Below are positions 2,425-63,253 of a stretch of 64,000 nt of DNA, one piece after another. Position numbers and translations under genes: made by a program. Below the pieces are notes generated by a model, which had not been told where the DNA came from, did no database searches, and worked only from the letters and a program-made list of their open reading frames with translations. Source of the stretch: Candidatus Cloacimonadales bacterium (GTDB taxonomy: Bacteria; Cloacimonadota; Cloacimonadia; Cloacimonadales; JAFGVF01); NCBI GenBank assembly GCA_963667035.1, contig OY762964.1, forward strand, positions 1,216,001 through 1,280,000. Reading direction: 5' to 3'. Positions within the stretch are counted from its first letter, which is position 1. Each line of letters begins with the position of its first letter.

Positions 2425-2546
2425 ATTCAACACTCGGGATTCTCACGGGAATCACACGGGAATCTCTCGGGAATCACTCGGGACTTTGCCCGAGAAATTC
2501 CCGAGAATATCTCGAAAAAGTCATGAAAGAGTCCCGTGTATTGAAT
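2425..2546. repeat. Palindromic array of 11-bp units (5 direct + 5 inverted), CGGGA core
   Basis: CGGGA at 2435, 2446, 2457, 2468, 2479; inverted units at 2486, 2497, 2508, 2519, 2530; ends ATTCAACACTCGGGA / TCCCGTGTATTGAAT. Confidence 0.9.
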
Positions 2547-2980: not shown

Positions 2981-4885
<1,905 letters not shown>

Positions 4886-4897
4886 AGGGAGTAATAT

Positions 4898-7390
4898 ATG
4901 TCAGATAATTCAAGAATAATACCTGTACAGATAGAAGAACATTTGAAACAAGCTTACATGGAATACTCCATGAGCGTCATTGTCTCCAGAGCTTTACCTG
5001 ATGTCAGAGACGGTTTGAAACCCTCTCAAAGAAGAATTATTTATGCAATGCATGAATTGAATTTAAAACCGGGTGGACAATTCAGAAAATGTGCCAAAAT
5101 TGCCGGTGATACCTCGGGTAACTATCACCCTCATGGTGAACAAGTTGTTTACCCTACTTTGGTGAGACTTGCACAACCTTGGAATATGAGATATCCGTTG
5201 ATTAACGGACAAGGAAACTTCGGCTCTATCGATGGTGATCCACCGGCTGCTATGCGTTATACTGAGGCAAGGCTTCAGAAAATAACAATGGATATATTGG
5301 AAGATTTAGATAAAGATACTGTTGATTATCGTTCAAACTATGATGAAACAAGAAAAGAACCGACAATCTTCCCAACAAGAATTCCTAACCTTCTTGTAAA
5401 CGGAGCAACCGGTATTGCTGTTGGTATGGCTACCAATATGGCTCCTCATAATATCACTGAGATTTGTGATGCAGTTAATGCTTTAATTGATAACCCTGAA
5501 CTGGAACCAAGAGACCTTTTGGAATACGTAAAAGGTCCTGATTTCCCAACAGGTGGGTCAATAGTAGGTAAAAGTCCGATACTTGAGTATTTTGAAACAG
5601 GAAGAGGAAAATTAAAAGTTCGTGGTAAAGCTGATATAGAAACTAAGAAGAATGATGATGAATACATCGTTATTTCAGAGATACCGTATATGGTTAACAA
5701 GACCAATCTTATTGAGAAGATTGCTGAGCTAGTGAAAATCAAGAAGATTGAAGGAATCAGCGATATTAGAGATGAATCAGGAAGACAAGGTATGCGTCTT
5801 GTAATCAAAGTAAAACGTAATGCCGATGCTTCTATCGTTCTTAACAAACTATACAAGTATACTCAATTACAGAATACATTCAGTGTTATCAATCTCTGTC
5901 TTGTTGATGGAATTCCCAAGATTCTTGATATGAAGACAATGATAAATAAGTTTATCAAATTCAGACATGAGGTAGTTATAAGAAGAGCTCAATTTGAGCT
6001 TAGAAATGCAGAAGATAGACTACATTTACTTGAAGGTTTCAGAATTGCTCTTGATAATATTGATGAAGTGATTGCAACAATTAGAGCCTCTAAAACAACA
6101 CCTGAGGCCAGTGAAAACCTACAAGCTAAATTCGGATTCAGCGAAAGACAAGCTAAAGCTATTCTTGAAATGAGATTGCAAAGACTCACAGGAATGGAAA
6201 GAGACAAAATCGAAGCTGAATATAATGATATTGTTGAAAAGATTGCCGGACTTAATGAGCTTTTGGCAAGCAGAGAACTTCAGATGAACCTCATTAAAGA
6301 AGAAACCGACCAGATTAAAGAAAAATATAATGACAAGAGGATGACTCGTATCGTAGCCGATATGGGTGAATTATCAATAGAAGACTTAATCCCTGAAGAG
6401 GATGTTGTAGTAACGATTTCTCATAAGGGATATATTAAACGTCAAAGTGTTGATTCTTATAGAAGTCAGGGAAGAGGAGGAAGAGGTCTTAAGGGATCTA
6501 AGCTGAAAGAAGAAGACTTCATTGTAAGTATTTTCATGGCCTCTACTCATGATTACATACTTTTCTTTACTAACTTTGGTCAATGCTACTGGTTAAAAGT
6601 ATATGAAATTCCCGATGGAAGTCGTCAATCCAAGGGCAAAGCAATTATCAATTTATTGCCACTTAGAGAGAATGAAAAGATAGAAGCTTTTGTCTCTATT
6701 AAGGAACTGGATCAAGAAGACAAATACATCATAATGTCCACAAAGAACGGTCTCGTTAAGAAGACTGCTTTGAGTAAATTTGCTAATCCAAGATCTACAG
6801 GTATTATTGCGATAAAACTTATAGAGGGTGACGAGTTGATTGAAGCTCTTATCACTTCAGGAAGTGATGATGTTATCTTGGCAACAAGACATGGATATTG
6901 CAATAGGTTCAGCGAAGAACAGGTTAGAGCTGTTGGTAGAAATTCACAAGGTGTGAAAGGGATCTCTTTAAGAAATGACGATGAAGTTGTTTCAATGGTT
7001 GTAACTGATCCGGAAACTACTGATTCACTGCTTGCAATTAGTGAAAACGGTTTTGGTAAACGTACTGATTTGAGTTCTTACATAACAAAGAACAGAGGAA
7101 CTAAGGGTGTGATAACTCTAAAAACTTCTGCTCGAAATGGAGTTCTTGTTTCTCTTATGAAAGTAAACGACGAAGACGACCTGATGATTGTTACTAAGAA
7201 TGGAATGATTATCAGGCAGCATGTTTCAGAGATTAACTCTATCGGTAGGAATACTCAAGGAGTTACGTTGATTAATCTTAAAAATAAAGATAAAGTATTT
7301 GACATTACAGTTATTCCAACTAATAGTAATGAGGTTGATGATTCTGAAAGTGAAGAGATTGATGGAGATCCTAGTAACGAAAAGGAGTAG
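4898..7390 (+). CDS. gyrA: DNA gyrase subunit A
   Basis: [24 protein letters not shown] (catalytic Tyr), GyrA-box QGRGGRG, C-terminal pinwheel repeats, acidic tail. Confidence 0.98.
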
Positions 7391-19880: not shown

Positions 19881-19902
19881 AGACCGGTCTTATGACCGGT
19901 CT
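19881..19902. repeat. Left target duplication of IS1182 copy 1 (host terminator hairpin)
   Basis: AGACCGGTCTTATGACCGGTCT identical to 21555-21576. Confidence 0.92.
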
Positions 19903-19911
19903 CAGACTGTT

Positions 19912-19952
19912 GACAAAGCTATGAGTAAGATTTCATAGCTTTGTCTTTTTTT
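19912..19952 (+). terminator. IS-internal terminator at IS1182 left end
   Basis: GACAAAGCTATGA-8nt-TCATAGCTTTGTC perfect 13-bp stem + T7. Confidence 0.8.
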
Positions 19953-20022
19953 AGCTTAAAATAAGAACATCAATCATTGACAGATTTCTCCAAATATTAT
20001 ACTTAAACCATCATAATTAGAG

Positions 20023-21490
20023 GTGGTTATGCTTAAAAAAGTTTCTGACACACAGTCCCAAATGGAGTTTGTAATAATAGATGATTTAGTACCGGTAGAT
20101 CACATACTAAGGAAAATCGATAGCGTAATAGATTTTTCATTCATTTTAGATAGAACAGCGCACTACTACCGGTCGTCCTCCAATTCATCCTATTACTCTT
20201 TTCAAAATGCTTTTTATTGGCTATCTATTCGGTATTCGCTCGGAAAGACAATTGGTCAAAGAGATTGAGGTCAATGTGGCTTATCGTTGGTTCTTAGGCT
20301 TTGGATTAACTGATAAAGTACCTCATCACTCAGTCTTCAGTCAAAATCGTAGAAGGCGATTTAATGATAGCAGCGTATTCGAAGAGATTTTTATAGATAT
20401 AGTGAAGTTAGGCATTAAACATGGATTAGTTGATGGAAAGATACTTTATAGCGACTCAACCCATCTAAAGGCAAATGCTAATAAAGGTAAATTCGAGGAT
20501 ATTGAAGTTGAGGTATCCTCCAAGAGTTACTTGGAAGATCTTAACACAAGCGTTGATGAAGATCGGAAGGCTCATGGTAAGAAACCTTTACCTCCTAAGG
20601 ATAACAATCTTAAAGGAGGAGCATCACCTAAAGTAAAAAATATCAAGTCCAGCACAACAGATCCCGATAGTGGCTTTATGACCCGTGATAGAAAGCCTCA
20701 AGGCTTCTTCTACTTAGATCATAGGACAGTCGACCATAAAACGAACTATATAACCGATGTTCACATTACTCCCGGTAATGTAAATGATAGCACCTGCTAT
20801 ATTGACAGGTTACAGTTCCAACAAAAGGTTTATGGTTTTAATGTTCAGGCAGTAGGGCTTGATTCAGGATATGATACAATTAACATTTGTAAGCAACTGG
20901 TAGATATGAATATTATGGGAGTCCTTGGCTACAAAAGACAGGGAGGTAAGAAAGGTCTATTTAAAAAGAACAAATTTACATATAATTCCCGGAAGGATGT
21001 TTACATATGTCCATGTAATAAAGAGTTAAATTATAGAACAACGAGCCGTGATGGCTATAAAGAATACAAGTCGAATCCTAGTGAATGCAAGAATTGTCCA
21101 ATGCTAAGTAAATGTACAGAAAGTAAGTCTTCTCAAAAAGTAATCACTCGTCATGTCTGGGAAGAGAGCAAAGAGATAATCCACAAGAATAGGTTAACAT
21201 TATGTGGGAAAGAGATATACAAGAGGAGAAAGGAAACCATTGAGAGAAGCTTTGCCAATGCAAAGCAACTTCATGGCTACCGATATGCAAAATATCGAGG
21301 AATAGAGCGAGTTCGAGAACAAGCTTATCTAACAGCTATCGTGCAAAATATCAAGAAACTCGTAAAATACCTTTTCAAAGGTAAATTAGGGAAATTAATA
21401 GCAAAATTTATCATCAATTACATGATTTTCAACTCCAATTTACACGAAAATAGAGCTAAATCTCGCATGTTTAGGTTTGGACTCAGTTAA
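20023..21490 (+). pseudogene. IS1182 transposase, frameshifted
   Basis: Versus copy 2, 11 bp (TTTGTATTGTT) are missing at ~20163, splitting the ORF into 20023-20268 and 20207-21490. Confidence 0.9.
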
Positions 21491-35788: not shown

Positions 35789-35886
35789 AACGCACTGTGT
35801 TTGCACTGTGCACCCACTATGAAGGCACTGCCAATGCACTGTTTCACCGAGTTCACAGTGCGTTCACAGTGGAAAAACAGTGGGTT
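35789..35886. repeat. Palindromic array of 11-bp units (5 direct + 3 inverted), CACTG core
   Basis: CACTG/CACTA at 35793, 35804, 35815, 35826, 35837; CAGTG at 35856, 35867, 35878. Confidence 0.85.
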
Positions 35887-35977
35887 GATTACGTTTTGCC
35901 TGATATAGTAATCAACGTGCAAACTTAGCTTGTATTGCTGAATTTAGAAGATGTATTCTAAAGGAATGGTGAAAGTT

Positions 35978-46366: not shown

Positions 46367-48029
46367 CAGATTGTTGACAAAAACATTCTAATTTACATGG
46401 ATATATTGTTGAAAGTCATTTTTCTTCATTTTAACTGAGTCCAAACCTAAACATGCGAGATTTAGCTCTATTTTCGTGTAAATTGGAGTTGAAAATCATG
46501 TAATTGATGATAAATTTTGCTATTAATTTCCCTAATTTACCTTTGAAAAGGTATTTTACGAGTTTCTTGATATTTTGCACGATAGCTGTTAGATAAGCTT
46601 GTTCTCGAACTCGCTCTATTCCTCGATATTTTGCATATCGGTAGCCATGAAGTTGCTTTGCATTGGCAAAGCTTCTCTCAATGGTTTCTTTTCTCCTCTT
46701 GTATATCTCTTTCCCACATAATGTTAACCTATTCTTGTGGATTATCTCTTTGCTCTCTTCCCAGACATGACGAGTGATTACTTTTTGAGAAGACTTACTT
46801 TCTGTACATTTACTTAGCATTGGACAATTCTTGCATTCACTAGGATTCGACTTGTATTCTTTATAGCCATCACGGCTCGTTGTTCTATAATTTAACTCTT
46901 TATTACATGGACAAATGTAAACATCCTTCCGGGAATTATATGTAAATTTGTTCTTTTTAAATAGACCTTTCTTACCTCCCTGTCTTTTGTAGCCAAGGAC
47001 TCCCATAATATTCATATCTACCAGTTGCTTACAAATGTTAATTGTATCATATCCTGAATCAAGCCCTACTGCCTGAACATTAAAACCATAAACCTTTTGT
47101 TGGAACTGTAACCTGTCAATATAGCAGGTGCTATCATTTACATTGCCGGGAGTAATGTGAACATCGGTTATATAGTTCGTTTTATGGTCGACTGTCCTAT
47201 GATCTAAGTAGAAGAAGCCTTGAGGCTTTCTATCACGGGTCATAAAACCACTATCGGGATCTGTTGTGCTAGACTTGATATTTTTTACTTTAGGTGATGC
47301 TCCTCCTTTAAGATTGTTATCCTTAGGAGGTAAAGGTTTCTTACCATGAGCCTTCCGATCTTCATCAACGCTTGTGTTAAGATCTTCCAAGTAACTCTTG
47401 GAGGATACCTCAACTTCAATATCCTCGAATTTACCTTTATTAGCATTTGCCTTTAGATGGGTTGAGTCGCTATAAAGTATCTTTCCATCAACTAATCCAT
47501 GTTTAATGCCTAACTTCACTATATCTATAAAAATCTCTTCGAATACGCTGCTATCATTAAATCGCCTTCTACGATTTTGACTGAAGACTGAGTGATGAGG
47601 TACTTTATCAGTTAATCCAAAGCCTAAGAACCAACGATAAGCCACATTGACCTCAATCTCTTTGACCAATTGTCTTTCCGAGCGAATACCGAATAGATAG
47701 CCAATAAAAAGCATTTTGAAAAGAGTAATAGGATGAATTGGAGGACGACCGGTAGTAGAACAATACAAATGCGCTGTTCTATCTAAAATGAATGAAAAAT
47801 CTATTACGCTATCGATTTTCCTTAGTATGTGATCTACCGGTACTAAATCATCTATTATTACAAACTCCATTTGGGACTGTGTGTCAGAAACTTTTTTAAG
47901 CATAACCACCTCTAATTATGATGGTTTAAGTATAATATTTGGAGAAATCTGTCAATGATTGATGTTCTTATTTTAAGCTAAAAAAAGACAAAGCTATGAA
48001 ATCTTACTCATAGCTTTGTCAACAGTCTG
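46367..48029 (-). mobile_element. IS1182-family element, copy 2 (1663 bp, intact)
   Basis: Same terminal IRs as copy 1; full-length transposase. Confidence 0.93.
46431..47909 (-). CDS. IS1182-family DDE transposase
   Basis: GRPPIHP..LFKML..GY..GIRSER.L, DSTHLKANA, STTDPD, DSGY, CxxC, YKRRKETIERSFA..K. Confidence 0.93.
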   Translation of the reverse strand: MVMLKKVSDTQSQMEFVIIDDLVPVDHILRKIDSVIDFSFILDRTAHLYCSTTGRPPIHPITLFKMLFIGYLFGIRSERQLVKEIEVNVAYRWFLGFGLTDKVPHHSVFSQNRRRRFNDSSVFEEIFIDIVKLGIKHGLVDGKILYSDSTHLKANANKGKFEDIEVEVSSKSYLEDLNTSVDEDRKAHGKKPLPPKDNNLKGGASPKVKNIKSSTTDPDSGFMTRDRKPQGFFYLDHRTVDHKTNYITDVHITPGNVNDSTCYIDRLQFQQKVYGFNVQAVGLDSGYDTINICKQLVDMNIMGVLGYKRQGGKKGLFKKNKFTYNSRKDVYICPCNKELNYRTTSRDGYKEYKSNPSECKNCPMLSKCTESKSSQKVITRHVWEESKEIIHKNRLTLCGKEIYKRRKETIERSFANAKQLHGYRYAKYRGIERVREQAYLTAIVQNIKKLVKYLFKGKLGKLIAKFIINYMIFNSNLHENRAKSRMFRFGLS

Positions 48030-48055
48030 AAGCGGAAGTTGAATAACTTCCGCTT
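48030..48055. repeat. Second copy of IS1182 copy 2 target duplication
   Basis: AAGCGGAAGTTGAATAACTTCCGCTT, 22 bp past the degP stop codon. Confidence 0.92.
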
Positions 48056-63099: not shown

Positions 63100-63156
63100 A
63101 GATGATTGGGATGATAATTATTTCTATCTTGATTTTGTTTACTCTTTATGGTCTTC

Positions 63157-63253
63157 TTCAACACTCGCGAATCTGAAGGGAGTTACTCAGGATTTTGGCG
63201 GGAATTTCTCGGGTAAAGTCCCGAGAGAGTCCCGTGTAAGTCCCGAGTATTGA
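63157..63253. repeat. Palindromic array of 11-bp units (5 direct + 3 inverted), same family as 2425-2546
   Basis: Starts TTCAACACTCG, ends GTCCCGAGTATTGA; direct units at 63162-63216, AGTCCCGWGWR at 63217, 63228, 63239. Confidence 0.85.

Follow-up and report, generated by a model that had tools for sequence, protein, structure and literature searches.

The subject of this report is a phased palindrome of 11-bp units in a 64,000-nt window (positions 1,216,001-1,280,000) of a Candidatus Cloacimonadales genome, termed G000 here, which is a single 3.10-Mb contig of 35.6% GC. The palindrome lies in the spacer between the divergent RDD-family and gyrB genes. It is real, and it is not a gyrB-specific device but one copy of a genus-level dispersed repeat. 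Its relatives occupy intergenic sites, turn over between species and are restricted to the genus, and a sister family has been amplified recently. With a probability of roughly 0.55, the array is a copy of a lineage-specific, non-coding, non-autonomous foldback repeat, selfish in nature and similar to MITEs (miniature inverted-repeat transposable elements) or repetitive extragenic palindromes (REPs), that would be a passenger in this spacer and whose units would be iterated protein-binding sites. The taxonomic family was represented by 12 genomes, four of the genus (G000, G113, G112 and G111) and eight of two sister genera (G103-G110).

The palindrome between the RDD-family gene and gyrB

An earlier note on this DNA described five direct 11-mers followed in register by five inverted ones, and the spacer holds precisely this arrangement, with unbroken spacing and the sequence as described. 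The palindrome of about 122 bp reported there is also real, but its limits were drawn too narrowly, as the hairpin runs out to 2415-2556. The parts of the element are as follows (window coordinates):

2415-2556 (genome 1218415-1218556), + strand: whole family-A foldback, copy 1, delimited by predicted hairpin extent and alignment with other copies
2417-2430, + strand: left-hand outer stem, where the terminal inverted repeat begins; pairs with 2541-2556
2431-2485, + strand: G-rich arm, composed of five direct units (11 bp, core CGGGA) that also show a 22-bp super-period
2477-2494, + strand: central hairpin, 6-bp stem and 6-nt loop, the best conserved part of family A
2489-2546, + strand: inverted arm of five units, degenerate but in 11-nt register, best preserved in its inner and outer units

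The self-match of this copy in nhmmer spans genome positions 1218416-1218555. A repeat search found five in-register copies in 2431-2496 with start-to-start distances of 11, 11, 11 and 11, and Tandem Repeats Finder (TRF) reported period 11 (4.8 copies, 83% matches, score 71) as well as period 22 (score 85). The cores of the inverted arm read CCCG, CCCG, CTCG, CATG and CCCG, degenerate in sequence with an intact register; complementarity between the arms is 93% for 2457-2471/2489-2503 and 74% for 2434-2460/2489-2515. The element is indeed the GC-richer island noted before, with a GC content of 0.43-0.45 inside versus 0.21-0.31 beside it, and as its units abut without spacers it is not a CRISPR array. 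It contains no gene; its neighbours are the RDD-family gene (445-2289, - strand) and gyrB (2984-4885, + strand), the latter followed by gyrA. A promoter and terminator scan returned two promoter-like sites against 3.9 expected and no terminator. Against 200 shuffles, folding is strong for the + strand as RNA (-65.5 kcal/mol, z -9.1), the - strand as RNA (-59.8 kcal/mol, z -6.9) and the element as DNA (-31.3 kcal/mol, z -5.8).

Among the sequencing runs listed, the stretch occurs in three, all from one sample, and no RNA run is among them. Contigs from these three runs break off within the repeat, which is expected of a multi-copy sequence. None spans the whole element, and they match the assembly on both sides and overlap at the centre without any joint, indel or differing letter, so that the misassembly considered in the earlier note finds no support. 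Chance similarity or an assembly artefact is thus a negligible explanation: the incomplete spanning is the point in its favour, and against it stand the agreement of the contigs, the presence of the same family in three other assemblies of the genus, and the 0.05 arrays in shuffled sequence versus 53 real ones (see below).

A dispersed repeat of the genus

For family A, a single-sequence nhmmer search of G000 gave 21 loci, one of which (E-value 0.43) was discounted, leaving 20 credible loci of about 100-150 bp. All 20 are intergenic, in 5 divergent, 4 convergent and 11 co-directional spacers according to flanking strands as read; gene calls for these assignments and those below are crude and based on open reading frames (ORFs). 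The window contains a second copy, with just three units in the G-arm:

63147-63249 (genome 1279147-1279249), - strand: family-A foldback, copy 2

BLAST of the spacer against the 12 genomes matched the element solely in the four genomes of the genus (28 matches in G000, own locus and gyrB part included; 25 in G113, 39 in G112 and 3 in G111), and the eight sister-genus genomes matched gyrB alone. The exact pattern of the family-A centre was found at 6 loci in one other species. The copy count proposed in the earlier note thus gives about 20 dispersed loci in G000, and the same family is present in three further assemblies of the genus. A link to gyrB is not supported: homology to G113 upstream of gyrB starts at window position 2803, which is 181 nt ahead of the ATG and leaves a gap of about 250 nt to the element. 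In G113 this spacer is occupied by a different foldback (family E, below), and the RDD gene of that genome lies about 190 kb away. Such arrays should accordingly not be annotated as regulators specific to the neighbouring gene, here gyrB.

A broader pattern of four CGGGA cores at 11-nt spacing matched 13 of 232 Cloacimonadota genomes (reversed control, 0), namely all four of the genus and nine of other genera, the latter with different 6-nt fill. Several of these arrays of other genera form hairpins whose pyrimidine arm is degenerate. Metagenome and viral contigs gave no match to the exact arm pattern of family A, and BLAST of the element against plasmids and phages gave none. A loose pattern (CGGGA-N6, four times) was analysed at 241 loci of metagenome and viral contigs among the matches listed; homogeneous tandem arrays made up 93 of the 121 loci from viral contigs and 99 of the 120 from metagenomes, and a phased inverted partner appeared by a crude test in just 6 of those listed, all representing one locus. 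The loose matches listed therefore carry little information on foldbacks. In several viral contigs, 11-nt arrays with the CGGGA core were seen at the extreme ends (L167, L194/L196, L198, L223, L225 and others), once at both ends of a contig. Packaging sites or terminal repeats may be the reason.

In 16 of 20 copies of family A and 10 of 15 of family B, the + strand carries the G-rich arm, and a pattern scan gave 25 forward versus 3 reverse matches. An orientation linked to replication was rejected, as this strand preference is not reversed across the terminus predicted from skew near 1.39 Mb.

At least seven families built on 11-nt units

Reading of individual loci in G000 revealed at least seven families with unrelated units and a common build: a long imperfect palindrome whose arms are rows of 11-nt units, one arm being better kept. 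Their unit cores are:

Family A: CGGGAAT
Family B: CAACGGGAGAC
Family C: CTTGCATAA
Family D: TTGAGTAAG
Family E: CACTGTG
Family F: CTTGGG
Family G: CCAAGGAGG

The earlier note had proposed a genome scan for 11-bp autocorrelation with central inversion, a test for positional bias and a comparison with shuffled sequence. In intergenic DNA, exact 5-mers recur with a frequency of 6.48 per thousand at a distance of 11 nt, and the values at 22 and 33 nt are 4.23 and 3.08, compared with about 2.0 elsewhere; coding DNA has no 11-nt peak and a 3-nt pattern alone. Among 397 genome TRF rows, 121 have period 11 and 34 period 22, compared with 9 for period 10 and 48 for period 12. Strict arrays, in which no fewer than 25 of 33 positions recur at the distance under test, amount to 54 for a distance of 11 (53 intergenic) versus 0, 1, 0, 4, 0 and 2 at distances 8, 9, 10, 12, 13 and 14; for the 53 arrays in spacers, 20 shuffles gave 0.05 on average and never more than 1. 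A gapless scan for long palindromes yielded 47, all of them intergenic (mirror-repeat control, 1), and 11 is the strongest internal period in 43 of them. Arrays and palindromes combined amount to 120 loci and 8.7 kb. Divergent spacers hold 53 of the 107 spacer-located loci, where 27% (spacers of at least 150 nt) or 29% (by spacer length) would be expected, and with respect to the adjacent genes the G-rich strand is not biased in orientation (17 sense, 23 antisense).

The window itself holds a member of family E, with a TRF row at 35851-35871:

35789-35887 (genome 1251789-1251887): family-E foldback, core CACTGTG, 11-nt period (arm 45, best period 11)

At several loci a C hairpin, a linker of about 30 nt and an E hairpin form a fixed composite (composite loci and related sites at genome positions 1487150-1487500, 1509880-1510200, 1092047-1092380, 2767460-2767810 and 400476-400722), and the outer arms of family C carry B-like units. 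These two observations indicate that the families are modular, as in mosaic elements. A short palindrome with the 9-mer TTATCCACA, which we take to be the DnaA-box consensus, is present in all seven family-G copies (genome 664014, 759624, 1044885, 1706632, 1757694, 1785860 and 1815336). These copies may be dispersed DnaA-titrating sites, or the likeness may be coincidental.

Turnover between species and recent amplification

The 11-nt signal is confined to the genus in equal 400-kb samples of four genomes:

G000: 11-nt ratio 3.2, 9 strict arrays per 400 kb
G113 (same genus): 11-nt ratio 3.6, 18 strict arrays per 400 kb
G103 (sister genus): 11-nt ratio 1.2, 0 strict arrays per 400 kb
G106 (sister genus): 11-nt ratio 1.1, 0 strict arrays per 400 kb

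For the comparison of orthologous sites proposed in the earlier note, the 2.5-kb flanks of 20 family-A copies of G113 were placed in G000, and three loci were uninformative. None of the 17 informative copies is shared between the two species: in 16 the flank pairs map to different G000 regions, and the one colinear site is empty in G000. About three further breaks of colinearity occur in about 78 kb of the same flanks, and, judged by eye, the elements coincide with synteny junctions far more often than gene junctions in general do. Other repeats are not enriched at the G000 counterparts of these junctions (3 of 24 within 1 kb versus 7.7% in the control, p 0.28).

The family-E pattern, searched with at most one mismatch, matched 46 times in G000, about 250 times in G113 (250 matches, many of them identical), 33 times in G112 and once in G111, and neither the eight sister-genus genomes nor the reversed control gave any match. 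Thirteen chosen G113 copies are nearly identical over about 190 columns and similarity drops sharply beyond, which points to recent amplification of family E in this genome. The G113 copies have a conserved non-palindromic head of about 80 nt before the foldback (alignment columns about 165-245; L405-L418), and a further repeat family often lies directly upstream of the element, as it also does upstream of gyrB in G113.

Unequal arms and pairing

The two arms of family A are conserved to different degrees:

G-arm: identity 0.88 within G000 and 0.82 between species; mean column identity 0.94
Mirror arm: identity 0.70 within G000 and 0.68 between species; mean column identity 0.79

The G-arm has a variable number of units, with 1-7 exact CGGGR cores per copy and a mode of 5. 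The mirror arm keeps its length and has 1-4 exact YCCCG cores per copy. In an alignment of 22 copies (15 from G000 and 7 from G113), in which 68 pairs of the in-register hairpin were counted, the central-hairpin pairs (columns 99-104/111-116) are kept in 20-22 of 22 copies and the terminal inverted repeat in 15-21 copies (columns 40-41/163-164, of 22; columns 46-50/154-158, of 19). The outer-stem pairs vary between copies, some on both sides; columns 35/169, for instance, are AU in 6, CG in 6, UA in 2 and unpaired in 8 of 22 copies. Within the unit, a core of about 7 bp pairs reliably and the linker is mismatched alike in most copies, columns 97/118 being unpaired in 21 of 22. As the linker mismatches are the same across copies, the arms are systematically rather than randomly imperfect.

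In-register pairing reaches 67.3% of cells, and sliding the partner by 1-3 columns lowers this to 26-47%. With partners shuffled among copies, 66.9% are paired, and the observed value is reached by 126 of 500 shuffles; cells changed on both sides number 68 versus 57.6 in shuffles (reached by 27 of 500), and the covariation score is 0.116 versus 0.106 (reached by 36 of 500). Two-sided changes occur and are confined to the outer stem. Covariation is therefore marginal, and pairing is mostly explained by column conservation. A strand-specific RNA hairpin with G-U pairs, an idea suggested by C-to-T changes in the mirror arm, was discarded, as strand energies do not differ consistently in any family. 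The earlier note allowed for a match to a described non-coding RNA family; Rfam 15 gave no match at the gathering score in the window, and over the element it gave weak matches to microRNA models (E-value at least 1).

Search for a mobilising or binding partner

For Y1 transposases, 13 PF01797 matches at 11 loci were found in G000. They comprise an IS200-like element with its own short hairpins and genes resembling REP-associated tyrosine transposases (RAYTs) that are flanked by other short palindromes. None of the 11 loci has a family-A array within 2.5 kb, and just two PF01797 matches lie within that distance of an 11-nt array (family C, on one side), with other hairpins in the immediate flanks. 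A RAYT partner is consequently not supported: the short hairpins around the Y1 genes are of other kinds, and the array-free sister genera have such genes just as often. RAYT-like genes with their own GC hairpin clusters on both sides are found at genome 1485101-1487970 and 1508374-1510460 and at L050 1300-2500; a classical REP/RAYT arrangement thus coexists with the 11-nt foldbacks. A CsrA sponge was dismissed because G000 has no CsrA gene.

Genes for the protein of 23S rRNA intervening sequences (IVS; PF05635) are bracketed by inverted arrays of 7-8-nt units in G113, G103, G106 and G109. Such cassettes are seen at L143 (G113:C4:486859-490173, positions 1333-2320) and at L142, L138, L137 and L108; in G113 two of the genes stand in tandem, and the units have 7 nt, or 8 nt in G106. 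A family-F 11-nt foldback directly adjoins the G113 cassette. In G000 there is a truncated PF05635 match only, together with a 217-aa four-helix-bundle protein:

L404 (G000:C1:85500-89000) 1314-1967, - strand: 217-aa protein, weak match to a four-helix bundle, TIGR04258 suffix domain

Among the 12 genomes searched, frames of 211-254 aa with comparably weak PF05635 matches occur solely in the genus, and one of them in G113 is about 1 kb from a family-A copy. The IVS protein was rejected as a partner, since the occurrence of its gene does not follow that of the 11-nt signal, and the arrays are missing from sister genera in which the gene is intact.

The single apparent gene-enclosing case in the G113 sample proved to be an insertion sequence (IS) of the IS21 family (IstA, 510 aa; IstB, 243 aa) in the exact apical centre of one family-E foldback, where 7 bp are duplicated (L133, G113:C4:1300001-1320000, positions 4870-7330). 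A second IS21 end abuts another family-E copy of G113 (C1_470k), and IS3-family elements abut families B and E. IS1397, a member of the IS3 family, reportedly has REP-type palindromes as preferred targets.

Proposed mechanism and alternative explanations

Under the interpretation as selfish foldback repeats, the genus would carry a superfamily of at least seven sequence families, all long imperfect palindromes of 11-nt units. Each 11-bp unit, consisting of a conserved 7-8-bp core and 3-4 variable linker bases, would be a putative iterated site for a candidate protein that may move or maintain the elements. The part under selection would be the G-rich direct-repeat arm with the central hairpin, and the mirror arm may matter mainly at mobilisation, as a hairpin or cruciform or as paired ends. 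The palindromes would serve as landing sites for IS3- and IS21-family elements, and the copy in the gyrB spacer would be present by accident of insertion. One unit length in unrelated families, one constrained arm and the enrichment in divergent spacers together make iterated protein binding, we infer, the best explanation of the units. Of the two readings offered by the earlier note, a non-autonomous mobile or cruciform element is favoured by the dispersed copies, the sister families, the lack of shared positions and the burst in G113; a possible cooperative binding platform has the much better-kept direct arm in its favour. The argument from helical phasing made there is plausible for 11 bp, but it is weakened because the same build has 7-9-nt units in Geobacter metallireducens, in the Coxiella IVS and in the IVS-protein cassettes of the present genomes.

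Several results weigh against the interpretation as a selfish foldback repeat. The elements are short, non-coding and multi-copy with conserved terminal inverted repeats, as MITEs are, but neither an autonomous partner with the same ends nor any gene-carrying form with inverted 11-nt arrays was found in G000 or about 500 kb of G113. G000 has no resolvase and no TnpB (TnpB-type zinc ribbon), so that a partner of the IS607 type with a serine transposase or TnpB is rejected, and its Y1 genes are equally common in sister genera without arrays. Inspection of the family-A and family-E flanks by eye, without a systematic test, showed no target-site duplication; TA often adjoins the element ends in what is an AT-rich genome. 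Whole-element identity of family A is alike within and between genomes (0.72, 0.68 and 0.70) and copies do not cluster by species, which indicates no recent burst of this family. The arms decay unequally, and a purely selfish element should lose both equally. The excess in divergent, promoter-bearing spacers (53/107 versus 27-29%) is also contrary, and could point to a role at the level of the host.

It is possible, if unlikely, that the array is a DNA platform used by the host, in which the 11-bp units would be operator- or iteron-like sites for a putative cooperative protein and the palindrome a trace of how the array arrived; variants are a nucleoid organiser, an insulator that separates divergent promoters, or a site of the gyrase or IHF type like those in bacterial interspersed mosaic elements (BIMEs). 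Conservation of the G-arm across loci and species (0.94 versus 0.79 for columns; 0.82 between species), the 22-bp super-period, the CGGGA core kept at 11-nt spacing with other fill in other genera (13/232 genomes match; control 0), the preference for divergent spacers (53/107) and the balance of sense and antisense copies (17 and 23), as expected for a double-stranded site, would all suit such a platform. However, none of 17 copies is at an orthologous site, the spacer upstream of gyrB contains another family in G113, the arrays are missing from sister genera, seven unrelated units would need seven readers, and no candidate protein was found. Somewhat similarly doubtful is an undescribed system of the genus, in which a protein would read nucleic acid in 11-nt steps and spread or maintain the seven or more foldback families, separately from the coexisting 7-nt IVS-protein cassettes; the G-arm would be its binding row, and the roughly 250 near-identical family-E matches in G113 would reflect present activity.

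A structured RNA appears improbable. The element would then be transcribed as a long hairpin, for instance an RNase III substrate like the rRNA intervening sequences or a REP-like stabiliser of mRNA ends, and strong folding (z -9.1), the in-register pairing of 67.3% against 26-47% and the two-sided changes (68 versus 57.6, reached by 27/500 shuffles) are what it would predict. Yet the two strands fold about equally in all families, covariation is marginal with a paired share no higher than in shuffles (126/500 reach it), linker mismatches are conserved and not compensated, no Rfam model matches at the gathering score and the microRNA matches are at chance level, the G-rich strand is not preferentially sense, and CsrA, a candidate reader of GGA motifs, is absent. 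Least probable among the structural options is a G-quadruplex (G4) predicted to form from the five GGG tracts of the G-arm on one strand. Most family-A copies do have at least four GGG tracts (mode 5) and the unit contains the GGGNATC heptamer (PMC4692102, in the part available), but loops of 8 nt would be needed, the build is shared by families C, D and E, which lack G tracts, and the location bias is opposite to that reported in the same part of that source. The interpretation as a selfish foldback repeat thus remains the preferred one.

Other repeated elements

An IS1182/IS5-like element with a 501-aa transposase is present in 27 ORF copies and 26 full-length DNA copies, which fall into two subfamilies that are 77% alike. 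Two full copies are in the window and 24 elsewhere:

about 19902-21468 (genome 1235902-1237468): IS1182/IS5-like copy
46453-48031 (genome 1262453-1264031): IS1182/IS5-like copy

In nearly every case it sits inside a terminator-like GC hairpin just after a gene end, with a complete copy of this hairpin, about 20-28 bp long, on either side; the right boundary used for the element is about 85 nt short.

Comparison with known systems

REPs, together with their hairpin doublets (REPINs) and BIMEs, resemble the present elements in being multicopy extragenic palindromes with hairpin doublets and mosaic modules (PMC3116915, in the part available). They differ in consisting of a single 20-40-nt palindrome, whereas here the arms are 50-70 nt long with 11-nt periodicity. 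REPs also differ in that the 11-nt elements are enriched in divergent and not in 3' spacers; extragenic hairpin doublets are thus shared, but the Y1 genes examined (2 loci in G000 and 1 in G113) are not flanked by 11-nt elements as a RAYT gene would be by the repeats of its own family. Bacterial MITEs such as Correia, RUP and ERIC are small, non-coding, bounded by terminal inverted repeats and subject to lineage-specific bursts, and the eukaryotic foldback (FB) elements, including Galileo, are said to have arms of tandem units that form internally repetitive inverted repeats. All of these traits recur here, tandem-unit arms included; unlike in those elements, no autonomous partner or target-site duplication (by eye) was found and one arm is far better conserved. 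The nearest known case of five plus five units of 11 bp is the parC centromere of plasmid R1, where two blocks of five 11-bp iterons are bound cooperatively by ParR on one helix face. However, its ten units are direct and form a single-copy locus next to the par genes, while the present blocks are inverted and occur in about 20 dispersed copies. The copy in the spacer described here has RDD and gyrB as neighbours, and no partition genes were seen beside the elements in an analysis not aimed at them.

For the GGGNATC heptamer repeats of Xanthomonas and Nostoc, for which G4 formation was proposed, the similarities are a G-rich heptamer inside the family-A unit, genome-wide non-coding arrays and a variable unit number. 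The differences are a period of 7 instead of 11, the palindromic partner arm, the opposite location bias and the other families that are not G-rich (PMC4692102). Cassettes of 23S rRNA IVS and PF05635 (S23p) likewise have hairpin-forming inverted arms of short tandem repeats, and the number of arm repeats varies between strains (PMC4990558, in the part available); these cassettes carry a gene and have 7-8-nt units, whereas the 11-nt elements share the inverted short-unit arms without a PF05635 gene between the arrays. The paired "predicted global regulator binding sites" of G. metallireducens (classes 1-3, with units of 7, 8 or 9 nt) are also dispersed and intergenic, with 3-5 tandem short units, mostly opposite-strand pairs and ISs at a fixed distance, but their pair distance is variable, while the Cloacimonadota units are strictly 11 nt and the arms adjoin a conserved central hairpin. 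In the part of the source available, no function of these sites is shown, and binding of IHF/HU was a guess of the authors (PMC2700814).

The earlier note regarded the array as an undescribed system. In the literature as far as it was available, no description was found of the strict 11-nt multi-family form or of foldbacks with tandem-unit arms in Cloacimonadota, but the design itself is known: foldbacks of this kind have been noted in Geobacter, cyanobacteria, Xanthomonas and rRNA intervening sequences. The elements described here are the 11-nt variant of a design that is known in fragments with 7-9-nt units. The strict 11-nt unit common to unrelated families argues for a common reader or "ruler" rather than sequence ancestry. 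Three handles are available in this genus, namely the strict unit, the single constrained arm and a congener, G113, in which one family looks recently amplified, and they make the mobilising or binding factor findable by comparing the genus with its signal-free sister genera.

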